Part shown: piece after piece, positions 115 to 40,904 of the stretch
Numbering within the stretch: the first letter of the stretch is position 1
How the letters are laid out: the number at the start of each line of letters is the position of its first letter
Virus record (IMG/VR): IMGVR_UViG_2687453163_000002
Span: 1-40,904 of that record
Source: a virus
Taxonomy: Duplodnaviria > Heunggongvirae > Uroviricota > Caudoviricetes
Length of the DNA stretch: 40,904 bases
Reading direction: 5' to 3' (one strand)
The notes under the pieces: generated by a model
Seen by the model: the letters and a program-made list of their open reading frames with translations, nothing else
Told to the model about the DNA's origin: nothing
Databases searched by the model: none
Position numbers and translations under genes: made by a program

Positions 115-190
115 GCCGATATAGCTCAGTTGGTAGAGCAGCGCATTCGTAATGCGAAGGTCGTAGGTTCGACTCCTATTATCGGCACCA
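115..190 (+). tRNA. thrW: tRNA-Thr (anticodon CGU), thrW-type; prophage integration target
   Basis: 76-nt cloverleaf: acceptor GCCGATA / TATCGGC, D-arm AGCTCAGTTGGTAGAGCA, anticodon loop CATTCGTAATG (CGT), T-arm GGTTCGACTCC, encoded CCA end. Confidence 0.9.
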
Positions 191-208
191 TTTAAATCAA
201 TAAGTTAC
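145..208 (+). repeat. attL: attL core: 64-bp direct repeat (3' 46 nt of tRNA-Thr plus 18 bp) identical to 39155-39218
   Basis: Exact 64-bp match between 145-208 and 39155-39218; flanking bases differ on both sides; the integrase gene stop lies inside the repeat. Confidence 0.85.
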
Positions 209-1365
209 CTCGCATTTAAGTAAACCACGTTCTCCTCTTGTGCCGTATTTGTGCCATTGCGACTTATAATCGCATCGATTTTGCTTGCGTGCTCGGTGAG
301 ATGCCCGGCTGAAAGGTGGGCGTATCTTTGAACCATTTCGAGAGTTTCCCATCCTCCCATCTCTTTAAGTGCAAGAAGAGAGACACCGGACTGAACCAGC
401 CAGCTTGCCCAGGTATGCCTCAGATCATGGAAGCGGAAGTTGCTAATGCCTGCCCGCTTTAACGCTCCCTTCCATGCCTTGTTGCTGTCGGTTCTCATCT
501 TCCTTACCGCTGCTGTTTTTGTTCCGTCGCTTCGGTAGGCAGGTTTGGTGTGGACAAATACCCATCTCTTATGGAGCCCCTGCTGTTTTCTTAATATCTG
601 GCATGCGGTTTCGTTAAGAGGAACTCCGATCGCATTGCCAGCTTTTGTTTCATCAGGGTGCATCCATGCCATTTTCTTATCCAGATCGACCTGTGACCAC
701 TCAAGGTCTGTAACGTTGGAACGGCGAAGGCCTGTCGTGATTGCAAACATGACCACAGGGAAGAAGTGAGGAGCAATTTCTGCAAACAGGCGCTTCGATT
801 CCTCCTCTGTAAGCCATCTGATGCGTCCATTCTTAACGCGTGGTGTTGATATTTTGGGTGCCCTGTCAAGCCATCCCCATTCAACAGCCATATTGAGAAT
901 GGCGCGAAGTATTGCCAGATGCCTCGTCTTCGTTCCTTTGCTTGCAAGCTTTGGTTTATACTCCGGCACCGGATTGCCAAGTCGCAAACACCTGTCCCGG
1001 CTCATCTCCCAGTTCAGGCGATGGCGGCGGTTTTCCATCCCGTCTACCGCCTCCATTATTTTTTCTGTTGTTATGTCAGAGAGAATGGCTTCTCTGAAGT
1101 GCAACATCCAGAACGATATAATGCTCTTGTCATCATCAATGGACTTCTTATCCGATTTCTCACGCAGCCACCGTATGCAGGCTTCCTTGAATAGCTTTTT
1201 CGGTGATTCCCCGAGATTTTTTACTCTCCACGCTTCTGCTTTCAGACGATCGTGAAGTTCTTGCGCTTGCCTTTTGTCCGATGTTTCAAGAGAGCGTCTA
1301 ACTCTTGATCCATCTGGCGCGACGAAATCGCAGTGCCACGTGCCACCGCGTAGTTTGATTGACAT
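205..1365 (-). CDS. int: tyrosine integrase (P22 Int-like)
   Basis: 386-aa ORF abutting the tRNA; C-terminal catalytic-region motifs HDLRHTWAS...GGW...RYAHL typical of tyrosine recombinases. Confidence 0.9.
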   Translation of the reverse strand: MSIKLRGGTWHCDFVAPDGSRVRRSLETSDKRQAQELHDRLKAEAWRVKNLGESPKKLFKEACIRWLREKSDKKSIDDDKSIISFWMLHFREAILSDITTEKIMEAVDGMENRRHRLNWEMSRDRCLRLGNPVPEYKPKLASKGTKTRHLAILRAILNMAVEWGWLDRAPKISTPRVKNGRIRWLTEEESKRLFAEIAPHFFPVVMFAITTGLRRSNVTDLEWSQVDLDKKMAWMHPDETKAGNAIGVPLNETACQILRKQQGLHKRWVFVHTKPAYRSDGTKTAAVRKMRTDSNKAWKGALKRAGISNFRFHDLRHTWASWLVQSGVSLLALKEMGGWETLEMVQRYAHLSAGHLTEHASKIDAIISRNGTNTAQEENVVYLNAR

Positions 1366-2790: not shown

Positions 2791-3687
2791 TCACTCTCCT
2801 TTGATGCGAATGCCAGCAAGCCAGTTTCTTATGCCGATATATTCAGCGTTCCTGAAACCGCCATTTACATATATAAATGGCAAGCGAAGATTGTGACCAT
2901 TGGCTGCCAGGTAGTCTTTACAACCCTGTTCGGTGAAACAGCAGGTAACGAATTCATCAATATCTTTCACAGCAACGCGCCGCCATTTTTCTGGTGGCTC
3001 TCGAAAGTTTTCGTGAAGTAGTTCGAGACGACGACTTTGGCGTTTATTGGCTTCATTGCCATCTTCATCAACCCAGACAATCCGGTCATAGTCATAATCA
3101 GCATCAACAACGATTTCGCGCTTTTGATACACACAAAACATAGGGTCTGACGTTATTCGATTATCCTGTGTTCGAATATTTTCACCGATGATGCCAAACG
3201 AATCTGGTGCAGATTTTGTCTGCAACTCTTCGATACGTTCAGCCATCGCAGCACACTCTTCAAAGTTGCTTAATGCTTTTCGCTCCCATTCGGCGCATTG
3301 TTTTCCAAGCTCTGCAATCAGCTTGTCTTTGCCTTCCAGCTCAACACGCAGCTTCCCTACCGTTAACGCAATCTCCTCGTTCTCCTGGTCACGGCGTTTG
3401 ATGTATTGCTGGTTTCTTTCCAGCTCATCCAGCAGCGCCAAGACGGTAGCTGGATTGGCTGCGGCGATGAATTCAGCATTGGCCTGCTGTTCTATTTGGA
3501 AATCTTCATCGAAACCGCTTTCAGGATGCGCTCCTTCAATTCTGCAAATGGGAAGATATCCAACAACGTCACGATGAATTAGCGCATCATCACCATCAAA
3601 TTGGCCCTCTCCATATTCGAGCGACCACTCACCACACGTTGCTTTTTCTGCCGCCTCACGCAGTGCCTGATAGTCAATCTTGCTCAC
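2791..3687 (-). CDS. Ead/Ea22-like protein
   Basis: 298-aa ORF; N-terminal ALREAAEKATCGEWSLE motif and coiled-coil middle region resemble the Ea22/ead family of lambdoid early-left proteins (recalled, not searched). Confidence 0.55.
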   Translation of the reverse strand: MSKIDYQALREAAEKATCGEWSLEYGEGQFDGDDALIHRDVVGYLPICRIEGAHPESGFDEDFQIEQQANAEFIAAANPATVLALLDELERNQQYIKRRDQENEEIALTVGKLRVELEGKDKLIAELGKQCAEWERKALSNFEECAAMAERIEELQTKSAPDSFGIIGENIRTQDNRITSDPMFCVYQKREIVVDADYDYDRIVWVDEDGNEANKRQSRRLELLHENFREPPEKWRRVAVKDIDEFVTCCFTEQGCKDYLAANGHNLRLPFIYVNGGFRNAEYIGIRNWLAGIRIKGE

Positions 3688-9320: not shown

Positions 9321-9467
9321 ATGACAAAACAACTCAGTCCTTACCAGGACAAAATTCACAAACACATACTACGTGATCGCTTCCTGTCCAGCTTCAAGCA
9401 GCCTGGTCGATTCCGGGCTGAGTTGGAAAAAGTGAAGCTGATGCAGAAGGAGAAAGGTCATGAGTAA
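9321..9467 (+). CDS. small hypothetical protein (48 aa), translationally coupled to the initiator gene
   Basis: AGGAG 7 nt upstream of ATG 9321; stop overlaps the ATG of the downstream gene (ATGAGTAA). Confidence 0.4.
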
Positions 9468-10359
9468 CATATCTAATCTAGCCGAAGCCAGAGAGGCCAG
9501 AAGGCTACAACAACCGCATCAAAGCAGCGGTAAGGGGTATGCCTTGCTGCACCGTAAAATTATGGATGTGCCGTTTTACAAGGATGCAGAAGCAGCGCAT
9601 CTGTGGGTTCACTTAATCCTCAAAGCAAAGCATACGCCTGAGTATGTAATGACTGACGCAGGAGAAATTCTGGTAGGCAGAGGGAAGCTACTTGGCGGTA
9701 GAAACTCTCTGGCGTTTGAAACAGGACTCAAACCAGATCGCGTTCAGTACCTGCTTAGAAAGTTCAAAAAACTCGGCATGATTGACTGGGTTTCACACGG
9801 TAAATTCTCAGTTTTCTCAGTAGAGAAATATGACGATTATCAGTCAAATTTTGTACCAGCAGATTACCAGCAAATTACCACCTCAAAGCCAGCAATACCA
9901 ATGCCTGTAAGCAATGCTGTACCAGCAGATTACCAGCAAATTACCACAGATAAAGAATATAATAATATTATCTCTAATACTGACGTATTAGAGAGTGCCA
10001 CAGCAGACAAAAAGTCTGACAAGAAAAAACCTTCCGTCAGCTGTCAGGATGTTGTCGATGCTTACCACGAAATCCTTCCTGAAGCTCCAAGAATCCGCGC
10101 ACTGAATGACAAGCGTAAAAACCAGATCCGAACGTTCTGGCGCAAAGCCGGAGTGATAACCCGCCAGCTTGACGGGCATGGGTTCACGATGCAGGACTGG
10201 AGAAATTATTTGAGCTACGTTGGCGAAAATTGCCGATGGATGTTCGAAGAGCGCCCAAACCATCAACGCGGAACCGTCTGGCACAAAAAGGGATTTGATT
10301 TCCTGCTTAACGATAATACCTACCTGAAAGTTCGTGAGGGTGAACACGATGACCGATAA
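9460..10359 (+). CDS. replication initiation protein (lambda O-like / P22 gp18 analogue)
   Basis: 299-aa ORF between cII-like and DnaB-like genes; contains a mid-gene direct-repeat block followed by an AT-rich tract, as for lambda ori inside O. Confidence 0.7.
9846..9985 (+). repeat. ori: putative replication origin: two 30-bp direct repeats plus AT-rich tract
   Basis: GTACCAGCAGATTACCAGCAAATTACCAC at 9846-9875 and 9918-9947, then GATAAAGAATATAATAATATTATCTCTAATACTG. Confidence 0.6.
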
Positions 10360-15050: not shown

Positions 15051-15125
15051 GGGTCAGTCGTATAAAGGTCATTACGGAAGGCTGTTAACCTTCTTATCGT
15101 GGTTCGAGTCCACGCTGTCCCGCCA
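15051..15125 (+). tRNA. tRNA-like gene, anticodon GUU (Asn) by manual fold; one acceptor-stem mismatch
   Basis: Acceptor GGGTCAG/CTGTCCC (T:T at 4:69), anticodon stem GAAGG/CCTTC with loop CTGTTAA, T-arm CGTGG-TTCGAGT-CCACG, CCA end. Confidence 0.45.
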
Positions 15126-15130
15126 AACAT

Positions 15131-15206
15131 GCTGGTTTAGCTCCAATGGTAGAGCAGTCGCCTTGTAAGCGAATGGGTAGCGGTTCAAGTCCGTTAACCA
15201 GCACCA
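15131..15206 (+). tRNA. tRNA-Thr-like gene, anticodon UGU, by manual fold
   Basis: Perfect acceptor GCTGGTT/AACCAGC, D-stem GCTC/GAGC, anticodon loop CTTGTAA, T-arm AGCGG-TTCAAGT-CCGTT, discriminator A plus CCA. Confidence 0.7.
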
Positions 15207-33877: not shown

Positions 33878-34008
33878 CCTTGATGCCTCACCAATTGGGT
33901 GGAATGGCATCGTAACTTACTGGATAAATACTCAATAGTACCATTTCGGTATGCAATCACATCATGGTTGCATCATATCATTCGTCTGGAGCAATGAAAT
34001 GTCAGATA

Positions 34009-34509
34009 TCACCTACTCAACAGATGGTCAGCAACCATGTTTGCTGCCTTATAAGCTATAGCCGCTTCATCAATGGTGTTGAATCTCCCAAGGGTTATGT
34101 TTTTACCTGAGACATTTATCTGAGCTTGCCATTGATTTCTTGCTTGACAGAAAGTTACCCCCTTGATTCCAGCATTACTATTTCGAGGTCCGACATTTAA
34201 TGCATTTACGACTCTGCTGACATCCCTAAGGTTTGAGATTGCGTTATTTCTTCTGTTTCTATCAATGTGGTCAATCTCTTGTTTGGGCCATTCGCCATAT
34301 ACATACAGCCAGGCAAGTCTATGTGCAAAATATCTTACGCCATCAATATTAATTGCGTTATATCCATAAGAAATTGTGCCAGCAACTTTCCCAACAGCAC
34401 CTCTGGCGCTTAATTTCTTTTTCCAAGTGAAAATTCCTGTTTCTTTATTGTAATCGAGAACTTCCATAAGGCGCTCACGAGTTACTACCTCGTGACGTCT
34501 CTTACTCAT
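34009..34509 (-). CDS. HNH endonuclease with AP2-like DNA-binding domain
   Basis: HNH motif [20 protein letters not shown] and AP2-like [43 protein letters not shown]; start at MSKRRHEV with GGAG RBS; AT-rich. Confidence 0.7.
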
Positions 34510-34522
34510 TATTTTCTCCGGA

Positions 34523-36244
34523 ATGTTTATTATGCCAGAACAATTATACAACGTTGTTGTTTCACAACCAAGTCAGTTATTTACTTTAGCTCGCTCGTTT
34601 AAAGCAAATGCCAATGGCAAAATTTATATCGGTAAAATTGACACTGACCCGGTAAATCCTGAAAACCAGATTCAGGTTTATGTGGAGAACGAAGACGGAT
34701 CTCACGTCCCTGTTTCTCAGCCAATTGTTATCAATGCTGCAGGATATCCTGTGTACAACGGGCAGATTGCCAAATTTGTAACTGAGCAAGGCCATTCAAT
34801 GGCTGTATATGATGCGTATGGTTCGCAGCAGTTCTATTTTCAGAATGTGCTGAAGTACGATCCTGATCAGTTAAAGCAGTTACTTCAATCAGATGAAGGA
34901 GCTGCTCACATTGGCACTAATAGCGGGAAAAATCTCCAAGATGAGCTATTTGCAATAAAAAATGAAATATATCAAGACCCGCTTACATCGTGGCCTTTCG
35001 GTGGAACATTAAAAATAAAGCAAGGGGTGTATGATGTTACCACTCCTCTGGTACTTAATTATGATGATTACCCTGCCGACTTTGTAGGTGCTCCGGGTGT
35101 CCGCTGTTTTTACTCAGGCGAGAACATGGCTGAGACAATACTGGAATGTAGAGCTACTGATTTTAACGTAAAAATGCTAGGTGACGCAGCGTATAACAGT
35201 CAGAGATTGGCTGCATATGACTACATCGGCAACATGACGCTGAAAGGGAATCCCGGAAGTTACGGTATGCTGGTGCAGAATAAAGCACATACTCGTCTTG
35301 AGAACATTGTTATCTGCCGCCACCCTGACGGGGAAGGGTTACGCACTGACTCGATGCTCACGAGCGACATGACGAACGTGTACTTGCAGAGTAATCGTAT
35401 CGGTTGGCGTGCTACCAACTCCGTAAATCATTCTGAACTGAACGCTATAACTGCAAATAGGCTTACGTGCAGTCAGAACAGTGAATGGGGTATCCTCGGG
35501 GACCGCTGGGGTGCTGGTACAACTATCAATAGCCTGACTTGTGAAGGAAATGGTACTCAGGGGGATTCCAGTACAGGTGGTGCGCAATTAGCCATAAATG
35601 GCCTTAACGGTTCGTGTGCTTTGGTGTTAAACAACCCATACTTCGAGGCTAATGCCGGGGGGGCAGACCTTGCTATAGATAATACTGGGACGCGACCTGT
35701 AACTGTGGTTATAAACGGTGGAAATTTTCATCGCGTGAGCAGTGCAAGATACACGCACACGAATATTCAAGTAACAAGCTCAGGTGGGGGAAAAGTTACA
35801 GTCATACTCAACGGCACAACGTTCCAGAGCGCAGGGGATTATCAGCCAAGTGCAGAACGACCATACTGGATAACAGGAGCTAATTGCGAGGTAGTTGACA
35901 TTGGGTGTGTTTTTACAGAAACAACCAGTAAGGTAACATCGGCTTCTGCATTGTCAGTCACACGCTCGGGAAAAATTAACGCCAATGGTAGTATCGACGT
36001 TGCTACTGGTGTTTCATCGGTTAACGTGGTTTCTACAGGTGTGTATGATGTTAGCTTTTCTCATCCGCTCGCAGCAGTTGCTAGCGGTTATATTGTGCAG
36101 ATAACACCTATATCTGCGCCTGATTCAGTTAGTTGTGATGTTACTTATATTGGCGTAGATACATTTAGGGTGACCCTGCGCAATACGCTTAGCGGAGCAG
36201 GAATCTCCAGTTCGTTTGCATTTAGCATTACCAGACTACTATAA
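34523..36244 (+). CDS. tailspike protein (P22/Sf6-type head-binding domain, divergent receptor-binding domain)
   Basis: N-terminal [92 protein letters not shown] matches the conserved head-binding domain; C-terminal about 450 aa not recognised. Confidence 0.85.
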
Positions 36245-36250
36245 ACACGA

Positions 36251-36280
36251 CAGCCTCCCTACGGGAATACGTAGGGAGGC
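36251..36280. terminator. hairpin between convergent tailspike and gtrC genes
   Basis: Perfect 10-bp stem CCTCCCTACG / CGTAGGGAGG with loop GGAATA. Confidence 0.5.
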
Positions 36281-36310
36281 GGATTCATTGTTATTTATTA
36301 ATGTGAAGTT

Positions 36311-37576
36311 TTATTTTTTTATTAAATCAAGAGTTAACCATGGAGGGAGCACTGTAAATGAGACGGCTTCTCCATGTTTTGCTTTATTTATTAATTCTGC
36401 TCCTTGAGACCAGTTCATGTCAGGAAGAGGGGTTATAAAAAAGTTTAATTTTATCATTGCAATAAGGATGACTGAAACATAGATTTTAAAGAATATTTTT
36501 AAGGTTTTATTCTTTATGCATTGAAACAAACAAACGCATATTAATGAAAAAATTGCAATATGAATATTTACAAAATACCTTGACCCGTTTCCGGTTGCAA
36601 GTGTTGGCAGTTGAGGAACAGAATCTGCCAGTTGAGGTTTTGCCATAGAAAATGCGACAATAAGTATTGGAAGGGTGGCAAACACTTTCATTTGCCAATT
36701 TCCTTTAATATAAATGAAAACACATAATGTAATTACTAAAGTTGATAGTGTGTACGATAAAAGGTGATTATCCCATCCAGCATTAGCGATATTCCAAGGG
36801 ACAAATGAAAAAAGAAATACATTAGATGATATTATAGATGACATAACATCAAAACTGAATCCTAATGGAGCATGTGATCTTGTTCCATTAAATGTAAGAA
36901 TTATTGATGTTGCCTGTATCAGCCCACACAAGATCATTGCCAAATATGGCAGTCGAGTATAAAATAAGTATAAACCTCTTATGCTTATTACTCCTTTTGA
37001 TAAGTGTAAATATTTAAAAACAGATGATGCAATTATGAATATAATAAATGGACCGCTCAATCCAGATAATACTATAAAAAATAAATCATGTGCTTTCCAT
37101 AATTTTGACTTGGATTCTTCAGATATTATTATCATTGCAACATACAATGATAAATACCAGTGAGCATTTGTTATATTGGCTTGGACTTCATCAAGCCCGG
37201 GCATGCAAATTAAATATACAGAGATGAAGATTTTTGATGTGGTGCTTAGGAATTTAAATCTATCGGTAAATAAGAACCATATAATTATAGCTCTAATTAT
37301 TATTCCAAAAAAGTTTGATAATAATGGTGCGTAAATTGGATTAATAAATGTCGTCGCACCAACAATGAGTGTTGATACTGTTTGAAAATAACCATTTCTT
37401 GGGGTTATGAGTGAACTGAAAAAACCTTGTTCGTATGCATCTTTATACCAAAAAACTGCATCCTCAGCCCAAAACTGGGCATTTGTCAAAATGTCAATGC
37501 GCCTAAGCCAAATCAAAGTAAATGCAAGTATAAAAATTGATATCTTGTGCCAATTGCGCATTATGAATATCTTCAT
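36311..37576 (-). CDS. GtrC-like serotype-specific O-antigen glucosyltransferase (polytopic membrane protein)
   Basis: 421-aa, very hydrophobic, multi-TM, AT-rich ORF immediately downstream of gtrB. Confidence 0.65.
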   Translation of the reverse strand: MKIFIMRNWHKISIFILAFTLIWLRRIDILTNAQFWAEDAVFWYKDAYEQGFFSSLITPRNGYFQTVSTLIVGATTFINPIYAPLLSNFFGIIIRAIIIWFLFTDRFKFLSTTSKIFISVYLICMPGLDEVQANITNAHWYLSLYVAMIIISEESKSKLWKAHDLFFIVLSGLSGPFIIFIIASSVFKYLHLSKGVISIRGLYLFYTRLPYLAMILCGLIQATSIILTFNGTRSHAPLGFSFDVMSSIISSNVFLFSFVPWNIANAGWDNHLLSYTLSTLVITLCVFIYIKGNWQMKVFATLPILIVAFSMAKPQLADSVPQLPTLATGNGSRYFVNIHIAIFSLICVCLFQCIKNKTLKIFFKIYVSVILIAMIKLNFFITPLPDMNWSQGAELINKAKHGEAVSFTVLPPWLTLDLIKK

Positions 37577-37588
37577 AAGATCATCCTG

Positions 37589-38506
37589 TTATTTTCTGCT
37601 TTTAATTAAGTACCGTGGTCTTGATTTTGTTTCTAAATAAATTCTACCTATATATTCACCGAGAACACCAATCCCGATCAGTTGCACTCCACCCAGGAAA
37701 AGTATTGATACAAGCATGGAGGGATACCCGCGTACTGGGTTACCAAAGACAATGGTGTCTATAATCATCCATGCACCATATAAAAATGAAATGCTTGCAA
37801 CAAACAAGCCTATATAAGTCCATACGCGAAGAGGAAAGGTTGAAAAACTTGTGATACCTTCCAGTGCCAGATTCCATAATTTCCAGCCATTAAATTTTGA
37901 GATGCCAGCAACACGCTCTGTGCGTACATATTCAACGACATCTGTCTGACCACCAACCCAGCTCAGTATGCCTTTCATGAAAAGATTGCGCTCAGGCAAT
38001 AGTTTAATGTTCTCCACAACCTCACGAGACATGAGTCGAAAATCTCCGACATTTTCCTCTATTTTTGGGGTGCTTATTTTGTTGTGTAATTTATAGAACC
38101 ACTCAGCTGTCTTACGTTTCAGCCGTCCATCAGTTGAGCGGTCTGAACGTTTAGCAAGCACCATGTCAGCACCTGCCTGCCACTTTTCAATAAGATGAGG
38201 AATAACCTCAATCGGGTCTTGCAGGTCAACATCAATTGGAATCACGGCATCGCCGGTTGTATGGTCTAACCCTGCAAACAATGCTGGTTCTTTACCAAAG
38301 TTGCGTGTAAATGACAGCGGAACAACTAGCGGATCAGAAACAGCCAGAGCGTTAATGATTGACTCCGTAGCGTCTTTGCTTCCGTCATTTATGAAAACAA
38401 TTTCTACTTCATATGGCTTCAACTCTTCGAATTCACGTACCGTTTTATAAAAAATTGGTATCGCTTCTTCTTCATTGAAGACAGGAACGACAAGAGATAT
38501 CTTCAT
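37589..38506 (-). CDS. gtrB: GtrB bactoprenol glucosyltransferase (GT2 family)
   Basis: 305-aa [23 protein letters not shown]...INDGSKD...DVDLQDP, two C-terminal TM helices. Confidence 0.9.
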
Positions 38507-38865
38507 TTCGCATCCCTAAAGACAATGAACTTTGAATAGACGAAACCGCACACCAAGCTGATGGCGGAGAAGGTAACAAGAGTGACAATTGGAGGAAGTG
38601 AACATCTATCAGCAACCCATCCAACAGTAGCACTCAGTGTTCCCATGAACCCGACATATAACATGTAGCGCATCGTTGTAGTTGATGCTTTGAATGTGAA
38701 TTTTGCATTCGCAAAGAAGCTAAAACTCACAGCCACAACGAAACCTGCGAAGTTTGCCATAGCCTGATTGGTATGCGCGGCATAGATACATACACCAAAA
38801 ACCACCCAGTGTATAAGTGTGTTCAGCACGCCTATAGATGTGTACTTTGCAAATAGCTTTAACAT
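38503..38865 (-). CDS. gtrA: GtrA flippase-like small membrane protein
   Basis: 120-aa four-TM protein, first gene of the gtr operon, overlapping the gtrB start. Confidence 0.85.
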
Positions 38866-39154
38866 TTCTTCTATCAGCTAATAATCAAAGGCATGAAGTC
38901 TATCATCCAAGTCTCAATCGATCGATACTTGCGGTAGTTGATGAGAAAAACTCTGGCACACAAATCTTTGCACTGGATTGCAAGGCTTTGTGCTCTTCTG
39001 TGAATGTGTGGCTATATGTTTGAAGATCGTTGTGCCGTATTTGTGACATATATATGGCAACATCATTCATCAACTTTCTGTTTGTGCCATCAACTATATC
39101 TTAGTGAATGCGGTTAATGCTTGCTAAAACAGATAGTTATGATTGGTGCTACAG

Positions 39155-39218
39155 ATTCGTAATGCGAAGGTCGTAGGTTCGACTCCTATTATCGGCACCA
39201 TTTAAATCAATAAGTTAC
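39155..39218 (+). repeat. attR: attR core: 64-bp direct repeat of the tRNA-Thr 3' region
   Basis: Exact copy of 145-208; not a complete tRNA (5' half absent). Confidence 0.85.
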
Positions 39219-39663
39219 ACATCATTAGTACCTTCCTTATTTCTTGACTGGGACAAATTTGGGACCGATGGGTTCAGAATCAAGTCTATTTGCCGTGCGT
39301 GTTCGGTAAGGTGATTAGGTGCGAGGTGAGCATATCGACGAACCATTTCGATAGACTCCCAGCCTCCCATTTCCTGTAACACTGATAACGGGACTCCGGC
39401 TTGAACCAGCCAACTTGCCCAGGTGTGTCTCAAGTCGTGAAATCTGAAATCATCAATACCAGCCCGTCTCAGCGCCGCTTTCCAGGCTGTGTTTGCGTCA
39501 TACCGCATCTTCCTTACTGTTGGCGCTTTCGTTCCGTCTGGTTTGGTACAGCTTTCCTTGTACACAAATACCCAACGGTGATGATTTCCGATTTGTTTTT
39601 TCAATACGCGACATGCAGTATCATTCAGCGCAACGCCAATTGCGCGGTTTGATTTACTCTCTT
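39215..39663 (-). pseudogene. truncated second integrase (C-terminal about 150 aa only)
   Basis: Contains [42 protein letters not shown], related to but distinct from the intact int; 5' side replaced by the IS end at 39664. Confidence 0.8.
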
Positions 39664-39705
39664 TGAGGTGTACTGGCAATAGCGGACACTACCATTTGTT
39701 CTTTT

Positions 39706-40524
39706 TTAAGCAGCCATCTGATGATATTTTTCCCTGAAGGCTGCCGGGGAGATATTCCCCAGACGAGAGTGACGACGCTGACGATTGTAGAAAATCTCAA
39801 TGTATTCCCGTATTACTGAGATGGCTTCATCCCGGTTATTAAAACGATAGTGGCTCAGGCTCTCATTTTTCAGCGTTCCCCAGAAGCTTTCCATCGGAGC
39901 GTTGTCGTAACAGTTACCTTTACGCGACATTGATGTTTTCAGACCAGACTGCTCCTGTATGACCCGGTAATCGTATGCGCAGTACTGTGAACCTCGATCA
40001 GAGTGGTGGATTAGCCCGGCAGGTGGGCGCTGGCTCCTGAGCGCCATAAACAGGGCTTTACCTGTCAGCTCTTTTGTCATGCGCTCTCCCATGGCGTAGC
40101 CGACAATTTCGCACGTATAAACATCTTTGATGCCAGCGAGGTACAACCATCCCTCCTGTGTGGCAACATACGTCAGGTCCGCCACCCAGACCTGATTTGG
40201 TGCTGTAGGAGCGAACGTCTGGTTCAGCAGATTTGGCGCAACTGGCAGATTGTGGTTCGGGTTCGTAGTCGCTCTGAACTTGCGTTTCTGCTTACAGCGT
40301 AGCCTTAGCTCCTTACGAAGACGTGCCAGTCGGTCACGACCAACGATGATGCCATTCTCTGCCAGCTCCGTCTGGAGCCGCCGGGTTCCATATGTTTCGC
40401 GAGTGCGGATATGTGCCACCTTAATCTCCAGTTTTAGCCGCTCATCACTTTGTTTTCTGTCTGAGGGTTCATGCTGTACCCAGTTGTAATAACCGCTCCT
40501 GGATACACCAAATACCTGACACAT
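39706..40524 (-). CDS. IS3-family transposase OrfB (DDE integrase core)
   Basis: 272-aa ORF with DDE-type core (WVADLTY..., HSDRGSQY..., NAPMESFWGTLK). Confidence 0.85.
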   Translation of the reverse strand: MCQVFGVSRSGYYNWVQHEPSDRKQSDERLKLEIKVAHIRTRETYGTRRLQTELAENGIIVGRDRLARLRKELRLRCKQKRKFRATTNPNHNLPVAPNLLNQTFAPTAPNQVWVADLTYVATQEGWLYLAGIKDVYTCEIVGYAMGERMTKELTGKALFMALRSQRPPAGLIHHSDRGSQYCAYDYRVIQEQSGLKTSMSRKGNCYDNAPMESFWGTLKNESLSHYRFNNRDEAISVIREYIEIFYNRQRRHSRLGNISPAAFREKYHQMAA

Positions 40525-40559
40525 CGCTTCAATGGGAAATTGTTGTCGCCATTGTTCGA

Positions 40560-40904
40560 TTAACGCGTATTTTTCAGCGACTCCTGTGCAAAATACGCTG
40601 TTGCTTTTTTTAATATATCTCGCTCAAGGCGAGCTTCATTTAACGCCTTACGCAGTTGCAGAATTTCAGATTCCAGTTCAGCCAGCGTGCGGGAACCAGG
40701 AGTACCGAGCCCTTTTCTGGCGGCGGTAACCCATTGTCCTAAAGTGCCTTCAGGAAGAGATAATCGGGAAGCGCCTTCACTGATCGAAAGTTGATTTTCA
40801 AGAACCGTTCTGACAGCTTCGGCTTTGAACTCTTTAGAGTAACGTTGAACCGCCCCGGGTTTCCTGGAGAGTGTTTTATCTGTGAACTCAGGCTGCCAGA
40901 TCAT
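40560..40904 (-). CDS. IS3-family OrfA (HTH), start uncertain, runs to the window edge
   Basis: QRYSKEFKAEAVRTVLENQLSISEGASRLSLPEGTLGQWV HTH plus leucine-zipper-like C-terminus, matching recalled IS600 OrfA. Confidence 0.75.
   Translation of the reverse strand: MIWQPEFTDKTLSRKPGAVQRYSKEFKAEAVRTVLENQLSISEGASRLSLPEGTLGQWVTAARKGLGTPGSRTLAELESEILQLRKALNEARLERDILKKATAYFAQESLKNTR

Follow-up and report, generated by a model that had tools for sequence, protein, structure and literature searches.

An integrase relic split by IS600 at the right-hand border of prophage SfX: evidence for serial use of the thrW site in Shigella flexneri

When a prophage sits in a tRNA gene and part of a second integrase gene lies just beyond its far attachment (att) site, which of the two elements came first? 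This question is raised by the right-hand end (positions 39,155 to 40,904) of the IMG/VR virus record IMGVR_UViG_2687453163_000002 (Duplodnaviria; Heunggongvirae; Uroviricota; Caudoviricetes). Positions 1 to 40,904 of that record make up the stretch of 40,904 nucleotides (nt) that we analysed as a whole and call the window. The tRNA gene, thrW, is a recognised integration hotspot. A preliminary description had taken the second integrase for the remnant of an earlier element at the same tRNA, cut by an insertion sequence (IS) of the IS3 family. We consider it very probable that this is correct. The region is best read as the right-hand border of the thrW hotspot of Shigella flexneri, where an integrase (int) relic of the type found in phages SfII, SfIV and SfV predates the resident prophage SfX, so that one site has been used serially. 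The arrangement is real, but it is also ordinary and already published.

The window starts in the last part of the proA-thrW intergenic region, which is followed by a complete thrW (tRNA-Thr, anticodon CGT; 115..190, plus strand; called by ARAGORN) on the tRNA side of the resident prophage’s attL. This flank (1-208) agrees with the published proA-thrW attB and attL sequences. A 64-nt exact direct repeat, without a comparable repeat elsewhere in the window, occupies 145-208 and 39155-39218. Each copy holds the last 46 nt of thrW (145-190 on the left, 39155-39200 on the right) and 18 nt downstream. The 46-nt core is identical to the published att core of SfI, SfII, SfV, SfX and P22, and the 18 identical bases past it are the stop codon and spacer common to the 3' flanks of both integrase families in the window. 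ARAGORN called no tRNA at the right copy, so this copy is a partial tRNA, as an attR should be. The newer element is therefore bracketed by direct repeats of the tRNA 3' end, as expected where a tRNA site has been occupied serially.

The relic itself lies on the minus strand at 39215..39663. It comprises the stop codon and the last 148 codons (240-387 of 387) of an int gene of the SfII/SfIV/SfV type. Its stop codon (39215-39217) is 14 nt past the copy of the tRNA end, and both this spacing and the strand are those of the intact resident int (205..1365, minus strand, 386 amino acids (aa), SfX type; stop codon 205-207; Pfam Phage_integrase profile positions 2-170). Past the distal repeat there is thus a second, non-identical integrase in the same register, and the first claim of the preliminary description, a C-terminal integrase fragment oriented like the intact gene, is borne out. 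The open reading frame (ORF) that contains the relic matches Pfam Phage_integrase (PF00589) with E=1.2e-30 and 107 bits (cutoff 27.1). Of the 172 positions of this catalytic-domain profile, the match covers only 57-171 and lacks the first 56. Codons 1-239 of 387 are gone, which leaves 38% of the gene. A functional enzyme requires a complete catalytic domain as well as the N-terminal arm-binding and core-binding domains, and since the relic has neither its N-terminal domains nor a whole catalytic domain, it is a tyrosine recombinase by descent, not a functional member: it is a non-functional pseudogene.

Could the fragment simply be a duplicated or gene-converted piece of the resident int? Strand, the 14-nt spacing from the core and the 18 extra identical bases, all shared by the two genes, might suggest it. 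Yet the proteins share only 61% identity over 145 aa (BLASTP E=7e-65), and the DNA 60.4% over 445 ungapped bases, falling to 43% at third codon positions; judged by this comparison, synonymous sites between the two genes are saturated. The fragment is also 98% identical to a different family of phage integrases. Near-identity at the nucleotide level, which the preliminary description had named as the result that would overturn its view of two clearly diverged genes, is absent, and we give the duplication hardly any chance at all.

To which phages does the relic belong, then? Taken together, core and relic (509 nt) are 98.4% identical to SfIV, 98.2% to SfI, 98.0% to SfV and 97.8% to SfII at the nucleotide level, and the int stop codon of SfII, SfIV, SfI and SfV also lies 14 nt from the core (core 3501-3546 and int from 3561, in locus coordinates). 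The relic is 98.8% identical to the E. coli phage phi458 and about 81% identical to the P22 int. Two amino-acid changes in its C-terminal tail are private with respect to all five references (SfII, SfIV, SfI, SfV and E. coli TUM9812). The longest comparison comes from S. flexneri genome CP012137.1 (locus L009; the loci compared here carry such L numbers), where more of the old gene survives. Once IS600 is excised in silico from the relic of L009, what is left is colinear with SfIV (99.3% identity), SfV (98.9%) and SfII (98.6%) over 2056 nt, spanning the core, int, xis, orf28 and part of orf29. This colinearity points to an older element whose int-xis module was that of the SfII/SfIV/SfV group.

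The same data bear on a milder alternative, in which the older element was an ordinary E. coli lambdoid prophage with this int type and without glucosyltransferase (gtr) genes, acquired from an E. coli ancestor. The best matches of the 445-nt fragment are indeed in E. coli (TUM9812, the best single match, at 98.9%; phi458 at 98.8%), and at least 80% of it is present in 1,285 complete E. coli genomes. At both E. coli loci that we inspected, an int of the relic’s type adjoins thrW with unchanged spacing; the TUM9812 gene has its full length, while that of O157:H7 is decayed. The window also holds no gtr cargo attributable to the relic. Against this, the L009 relic tracks SfIV, SfV and SfII (up to 99.3%) through xis-orf28-orf29, whereas its similarity to TUM9812, as to SfI, ends at about 1,540 nt. 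A gtr block of SfII also lies close by in serotype 2a genomes. In the 2a and 1a genomes this block is inverted and bordered by IS elements, and none lies to the right of the relic in the window. We regard an E. coli prophage as unlikely, though it is the rival to which we give the most weight, and an SfII/SfIV/SfV-type phage, possibly with gtr genes of its own, as the better candidate.

The relic ends where an IS begins. Homology to IS600 starts at exactly 39664, with the terminal sequence TGAGGTGTACTGGCAATAGCGG, and the copy (39664..40847, minus strand; right inverted repeat at 39664) is 99.4-99.7% identical over 1184-1185 nt to RefSeq copies annotated as ‘IS3-like element IS600 family’, so the earlier placement of an IS600-like cut at 39664 stands. 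It retains 1184 of 1263-1264 nt, with the copies in L009 and E. coli CE10 as full-length references. The two overlapping frames of the family are recognizable: orfB (39706-40524, minus strand, 272 aa; Pfam rve/HTH_21, the DDE domain) and the body of orfA (from 40560, minus strand; HTH_Tnp_1). What the copy has lost are its left 80 nt. These include the left inverted repeat and orfA codons 1 to 5, and are replaced by the end of another element. With the left inverted repeat and the native orfA start gone, the window’s IS600 is unable to transpose by itself. Nor does it show both inverted repeats and a 3-base-pair (bp) target duplication, whereas sister loci do (AAG). Compared with the uninterrupted int of TUM9812, L009 has a clean simple insertion with AAG duplicated on either side, and bases 39661-39663 (CTT) are the one copy of this duplication present in the window. 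The duplication shows that int was split by transposition of IS600.

The replacing sequence is a second IS, and here the preliminary description, which had recognized a single IS3-family element at attR, has to be amended. IS600 ends at 40847, and the window’s last stretch (40848..40904) is the first 57 nt of an IS629/IS1203-like element, also of the IS3 family, with the terminal inverted repeat TGAACCGCCCCGGGTTTCC...; it reads TGAACCGCCCCGGG... and is 98-100% identical to IS1203/IS629 ends. Because of this junction (40847/40848), the 114-aa ‘orfA’ at the window’s edge, with its foreign N-terminus, is a chimera. Relative to intact IS600 and IS629/IS1203, the window keeps the orfA/orfB layout and differs by the lost left inverted repeat and native orfA start.

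What lies further to the right can be followed in sister genomes. Window positions 34000-40904 are 100% identical to CP012140.1 (L011) and 99.1% identical to CP001383.1 (L015), the latter being, according to Sun et al. 2011 (PMC3306764), Xv strain 2002017 of S. flexneri. The IS629-like element continues in L011 to a total of 1310 nt (95.6% identical to the IS1203 of O157) and is followed directly by the upstream region of yaiC/adrA and the gene itself. The preliminary description had proposed a rightward extension to find the rest of the IS and remnant cargo; the extension gives the whole IS629-like element, and no cargo of the older element survives in the window’s lineage.

The resident element can be identified. 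The 39 kb between the repeats are a P22-like podovirus, whose virion module is 95-98% identical to those of Sf6, HK620 and HF4s and which has a P22-type portal and a tailspike head-binding domain. Its int shares 98.7% identity with the SfX int record U82084 and about 98% with the int genes of mEp213, HK542 and HK75. The window contains exact matches to two published primers, gtrX-F and intX-R (the latter at 1157-1175), and the published SfX attP, attL and attR show no mismatches to it; for attR, this is the comparison of SfX lysogen 036_X with window 38851-39232 (0 mismatches). Given the int type, the exact primer matches and the mismatch-free att sequences, the resident element is prophage SfX in thrW of S. 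flexneri. Its gtrA-gtrB-gtrX block lies on the minus strand: gtrA (38503-38865), gtrB (37589-38506) and the type-specific gene (36311-37576, 421 aa).

Which element arrived first is best seen where SfX is missing. Four loci (L005, L009, L013 and L014) show the site unoccupied: their thrW is complete and directly adjoins the same int fragment with its IS600 junction, no prophage separating the two. These relatives thus carry alleles with the older element only. Where an element does lie upstream of the relic, only the 46-nt partial copy of thrW adjoins the relic. At least four kinds of element occur in this position among the sister genomes: SfX itself (L008, L011 and L015); an SfV-like myovirus with a 417-aa gtr gene (L007, 10815-20465); a remnant with a 390-aa Acyl_transf_3 gene and a tailspike fragment (L006 and L010, 10814-12663); and an island that resembles CP4-6, with a P4-type 439-aa integrase, CbtA/CbeA, RadC, antirestriction and DUF932 genes (L012, 10691-20465). 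The missing part of the old gene is also still present in relatives, since int residues 1-224 lie immediately beyond IS600 in L004-L006, L009, L010 and L012-L014. We found the int'/IS600 junction in chromosomes of S. flexneri and in a single 4.44-Mb record entitled E. coli ECMA0423, and among the complete E. coli genomes searched with 39100-40904 no record covers 80% or more of it.

Published experiments reach the same point from another side. The attB sequenced from serotype Y strain 036 consists of thrW and, behind it, a ‘putative phage int’ (Sun et al. 2011, BMC Microbiol 11:269, PMC3306764, Additional file 1). Infection of this strain with SfX gave an attR as in the window, and SfI then enters at the attL of SfX, so that tandem use of the site by SfX and SfI is part of the published account (Sun et al. 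2011, PMC3306764). The order drawn in Figure 2 of that paper is proA, att, putative int, IS600, IS629 and yaiC. Together, the SfX-free alleles, the variety of upstream elements and the attB of strain 036 identify the relic as a fixed right border and the prophages to its left as later arrivals. The comparison with related thrW loci that the preliminary description had proposed thus comes out in its favour.

These observations are also what decides against the opposite order, in which SfX came first and an SfII-type element later entered the SfX attR as a right-side tandem lysogen and then decayed. The linear order thrW, SfX, att, int' would by itself fit either sequence of arrivals, and tandem integration is documented at these att sites. 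But the identical int'/IS600 junction lies beside a complete thrW in SfX-free genomes and beside four other kinds of element; strain 036 had thrW and the putative int before it was experimentally infected; and in the published work the entry of SfI was shown at attL, not at attR. We consider the reverse order very improbable.

How might the present arrangement have come about? Tyrosine recombinases and IS3-family elements behave in well-established ways, and the following account draws partly on that knowledge. A lambdoid phage of the SfII/SfIV/SfV type would first have integrated at thrW by Int-mediated recombination within the 46-nt core, which would leave the end of its int 14 nt from the tRNA. 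IS600 would then have transposed into codon 239/240 of this int, duplicating the 3 bp AAG and inactivating the recombinase. In a third step, IS-mediated events would have taken away codons 1-239 of int, the left end of IS600 and whatever else remained of the old element, joining the relic to yaiC/adrA; insertion of IS629, a deletion adjacent to it, or recombination between IS600 copies are candidates. Finally, the old attL (complete thrW plus relic) would have acted as attB for SfX, whose different int allele recognizes the same 46-nt core, and integration of SfX would have left the relic beyond the attR of the new prophage. The transposition and the empty site are seen directly in sister alleles, and the last step has an experimental counterpart in strain 036; the order and mechanism of the deletions are what we infer.

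Several points weigh against this account. The window lacks cargo, a distal att site and the N-terminal int of the older element, so the nature of that element has to be read from sister genomes. Likewise, the order of events in the window’s own lineage is reconstructed, with strain 036, in the literature, as the only direct observation. S. flexneri loci are heavily rearranged by recombination between IS600 and IS629 copies, and the junction of truncated IS600, IS629 and yaiC is also joined to other DNA in L006 and L010. The int'/IS600 module could thus have been moved or homogenized by recombination instead of being inherited vertically. Finally, the int::IS600 of the 2a and 1a genomes may be the own integrase of the SfII or SfI prophage, not an older relic.

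The 2a and 1a genomes are of interest in their own right, as they hold a mirror image of the window. At 671-5853 of L009 lies the right end of SfII (gtrII-gtrB-gtrA-arm-core, at 99.8% identity to the phage) and, after it, the C-terminal 118 codons of an SfX-type int (nucleotide identity to window 145-563, 98.6%). This int, too, is cut by IS600 in the same relative orientation, and the whole block is inverted with respect to thrW-int'::IS600. With an SfII-type and an SfX-type relic in the same genomes, both int types have left relics at the thrW locus. A proof of simple insertion for the SfX-type relic was sought in the 44 nt between its IS600 and an IS629-like element (5854-5897 of L009). This stretch has no match among the sequences compared in this work and proved unusable.

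Decay at thrW is also seen in E. coli. In E. coli O157:H7 TR01 (L001, 6997-9646), the relic-type int beside thrW has become a pseudogene, frameshifted and shortened at its N-terminus, with IS1203 behind it; this decay parallels the one in Shigella. In E. coli O7:K1 CE10 (L003, 6047-7591), thrW is followed by a degraded, frameshifted SfX-like int relic, a complete IS600 and yagU. We considered CE10 as a third case of IS600 within int and rejected it. There the IS600 lies beyond the degraded relic, about 280 nt from thrW, in non-int sequence with a target duplication of its own (GTG), and the locus represents independent decay at the same hotspot.

Across strains, there are then two independent insertions of IS600 into int, one in the SfII-type gene of the window and its sisters and one in the SfX-type gene beyond the SfII attR of the 2a and 1a genomes. 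Both have the same IS orientation relative to int. One could speculate that this is more than neutral bombardment by IS elements, and that IS600 within int is a recurrent, selected lock on serotype-converting prophages, which leaves the old attL usable as attB. If so, it would let S. flexneri switch O-antigen type repeatedly at one locus. We think this improbable, somewhat less so than the reverse order of arrivals. In the literature, a search for gtrII prophages with IS600 gave no match, and one for serotype-converting phages with IS600 gave only Sun et al. 2011 and one review; older subscription papers lay outside both searches.

Does the remaining half of the integrase still do anything? 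Gene callers predict the same 154-aa ORF (39215..39679, minus strand) across many S. flexneri genomes. Its first 16 bases, including the TTG start (the start and the first 5 codons), are IS600 sequence, so the integrase-derived part ends at 39663. An expressed half-integrase, exapted for example to bind at core sites and to influence excision of, or superinfection by, thrW phages, would fit an ORF that is open, begins with a start codon from the IS600 end and points the same way as the transposase genes of IS600. It would also fit the retained HxxR and RY motifs and the perfect conservation of the ORF across many genomes (an exact-sequence look-up found it in 76 blocks of an assembly collection, 19 of them with megabase contigs). 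S. flexneri is clonal, however, which accounts for the conservation. Missing from the ORF are the N-terminal domains and the first third of the catalytic-domain profile, and the only private changes are the two tail substitutions, both non-synonymous. A scan of 38800-40904 for promoters returned 0 sigma-70-like sites against 2.6 expected, which leaves expression of the chimeric ORF unsupported, and SfX and SfI integrate normally with the relic present (Sun et al. 2011). Exaptation therefore seems to us as remote as the reversed order. The relic is best regarded as an inert pseudogene whose only likely effect is structural, as the right-hand flank of attB.

That structural role has practical sides. 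In S. flexneri, SfX, SfI and SfV use as their attB what is the attL of the older relic, and the identity between attL and attR is for this reason 64 nt rather than 46 nt. The published primer intI-R (AGTGTTACAGGAAATGGGAGGC), which was designed for the int of SfI, matches the relic exactly at 39362-39383; a polymerase chain reaction with proA-F and intI-R is consequently not specific for SfI in strains that carry the relic. The correct annotation would be an integrase pseudogene (a relic of the SfII/SfIV/SfV type) split by IS600, the latter cut short in turn by an IS629-like element, and not a 154-aa ‘integrase’. Beyond this the finding matters little, although layered relics of this kind could serve to trace in what order lineages of S. 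flexneri switched serotype.

Some further features of the window deserve mention. The motif TTTGTG(C/A)CAT occurs at 248-257, 39040-39049 and 39081-39090, in both arms of the SfX attP, and a 20-nt repeat (238-257 and 39030-39049) includes copies of it; these motifs may be arm-type Int binding sites. The relic carries TTTGGGACC at 39258-39266, in the homologous position. Inside the prophage, the portal gene (20655-24081) is split into 20655-21587 (profile positions 2-261) and 22804-24081 (260-594) by an IS2 (about 21486-22842; 99% identical to annotated IS2; transposase ORF 21512-22417, minus strand). With an IS2 in its portal gene, the otherwise ‘intact’ SfX prophage is probably defective. Two tRNA genes, tRNA-Asn(GTT) and tRNA-Thr(TGT), lie 5 nt apart at 15051-15206. 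Two 35-nt direct repeats (94% identical; 9847-9881 and 9913-9947, 66 nt apart) fall within the ORF at 9460-10359, and may be origin iterons within a replication gene.

How does the locus compare with known systems? The closest is the one described by Sun et al. 2011 (PMC3306764): it is the same locus with the same sequence, and the att sequences and the primers gtrX-F and intX-R match. The passages of that paper that deal with the site label the gene ‘putative phage int’ only, without an int family or the IS truncations. What is added here is the SfII/SfIV/SfV int type, the AAG target duplication, the truncation of IS600 by an IS629-like element and the finding that no older cargo is left. Among integrases, those of SfII, SfIV, SfV and SfI (P22-type, thrW-specific) share 97.8-98.4% nucleotide identity and the 14-nt core spacing with the relic, which differs from them in being truncated to 38%, in its two private tail changes and in having no gtr association in the window. 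Serial or tandem occupation of the same tRNA gene is likewise seen at CP4-6 of E. coli K-12 (thrW with the pseudo-tRNA ptwF), after which phage annotations name a ‘CP4-6 type’ att site, and at the Sp1/CP-933H remnant at thrW in O157:H7. Both share with the window a repeated tRNA 3' segment, an int beside an att copy and IS-driven decay. The window is set apart from these two by an older element worn down to 445 bases of int, and by a newer one that is a serotype-converting podovirus.

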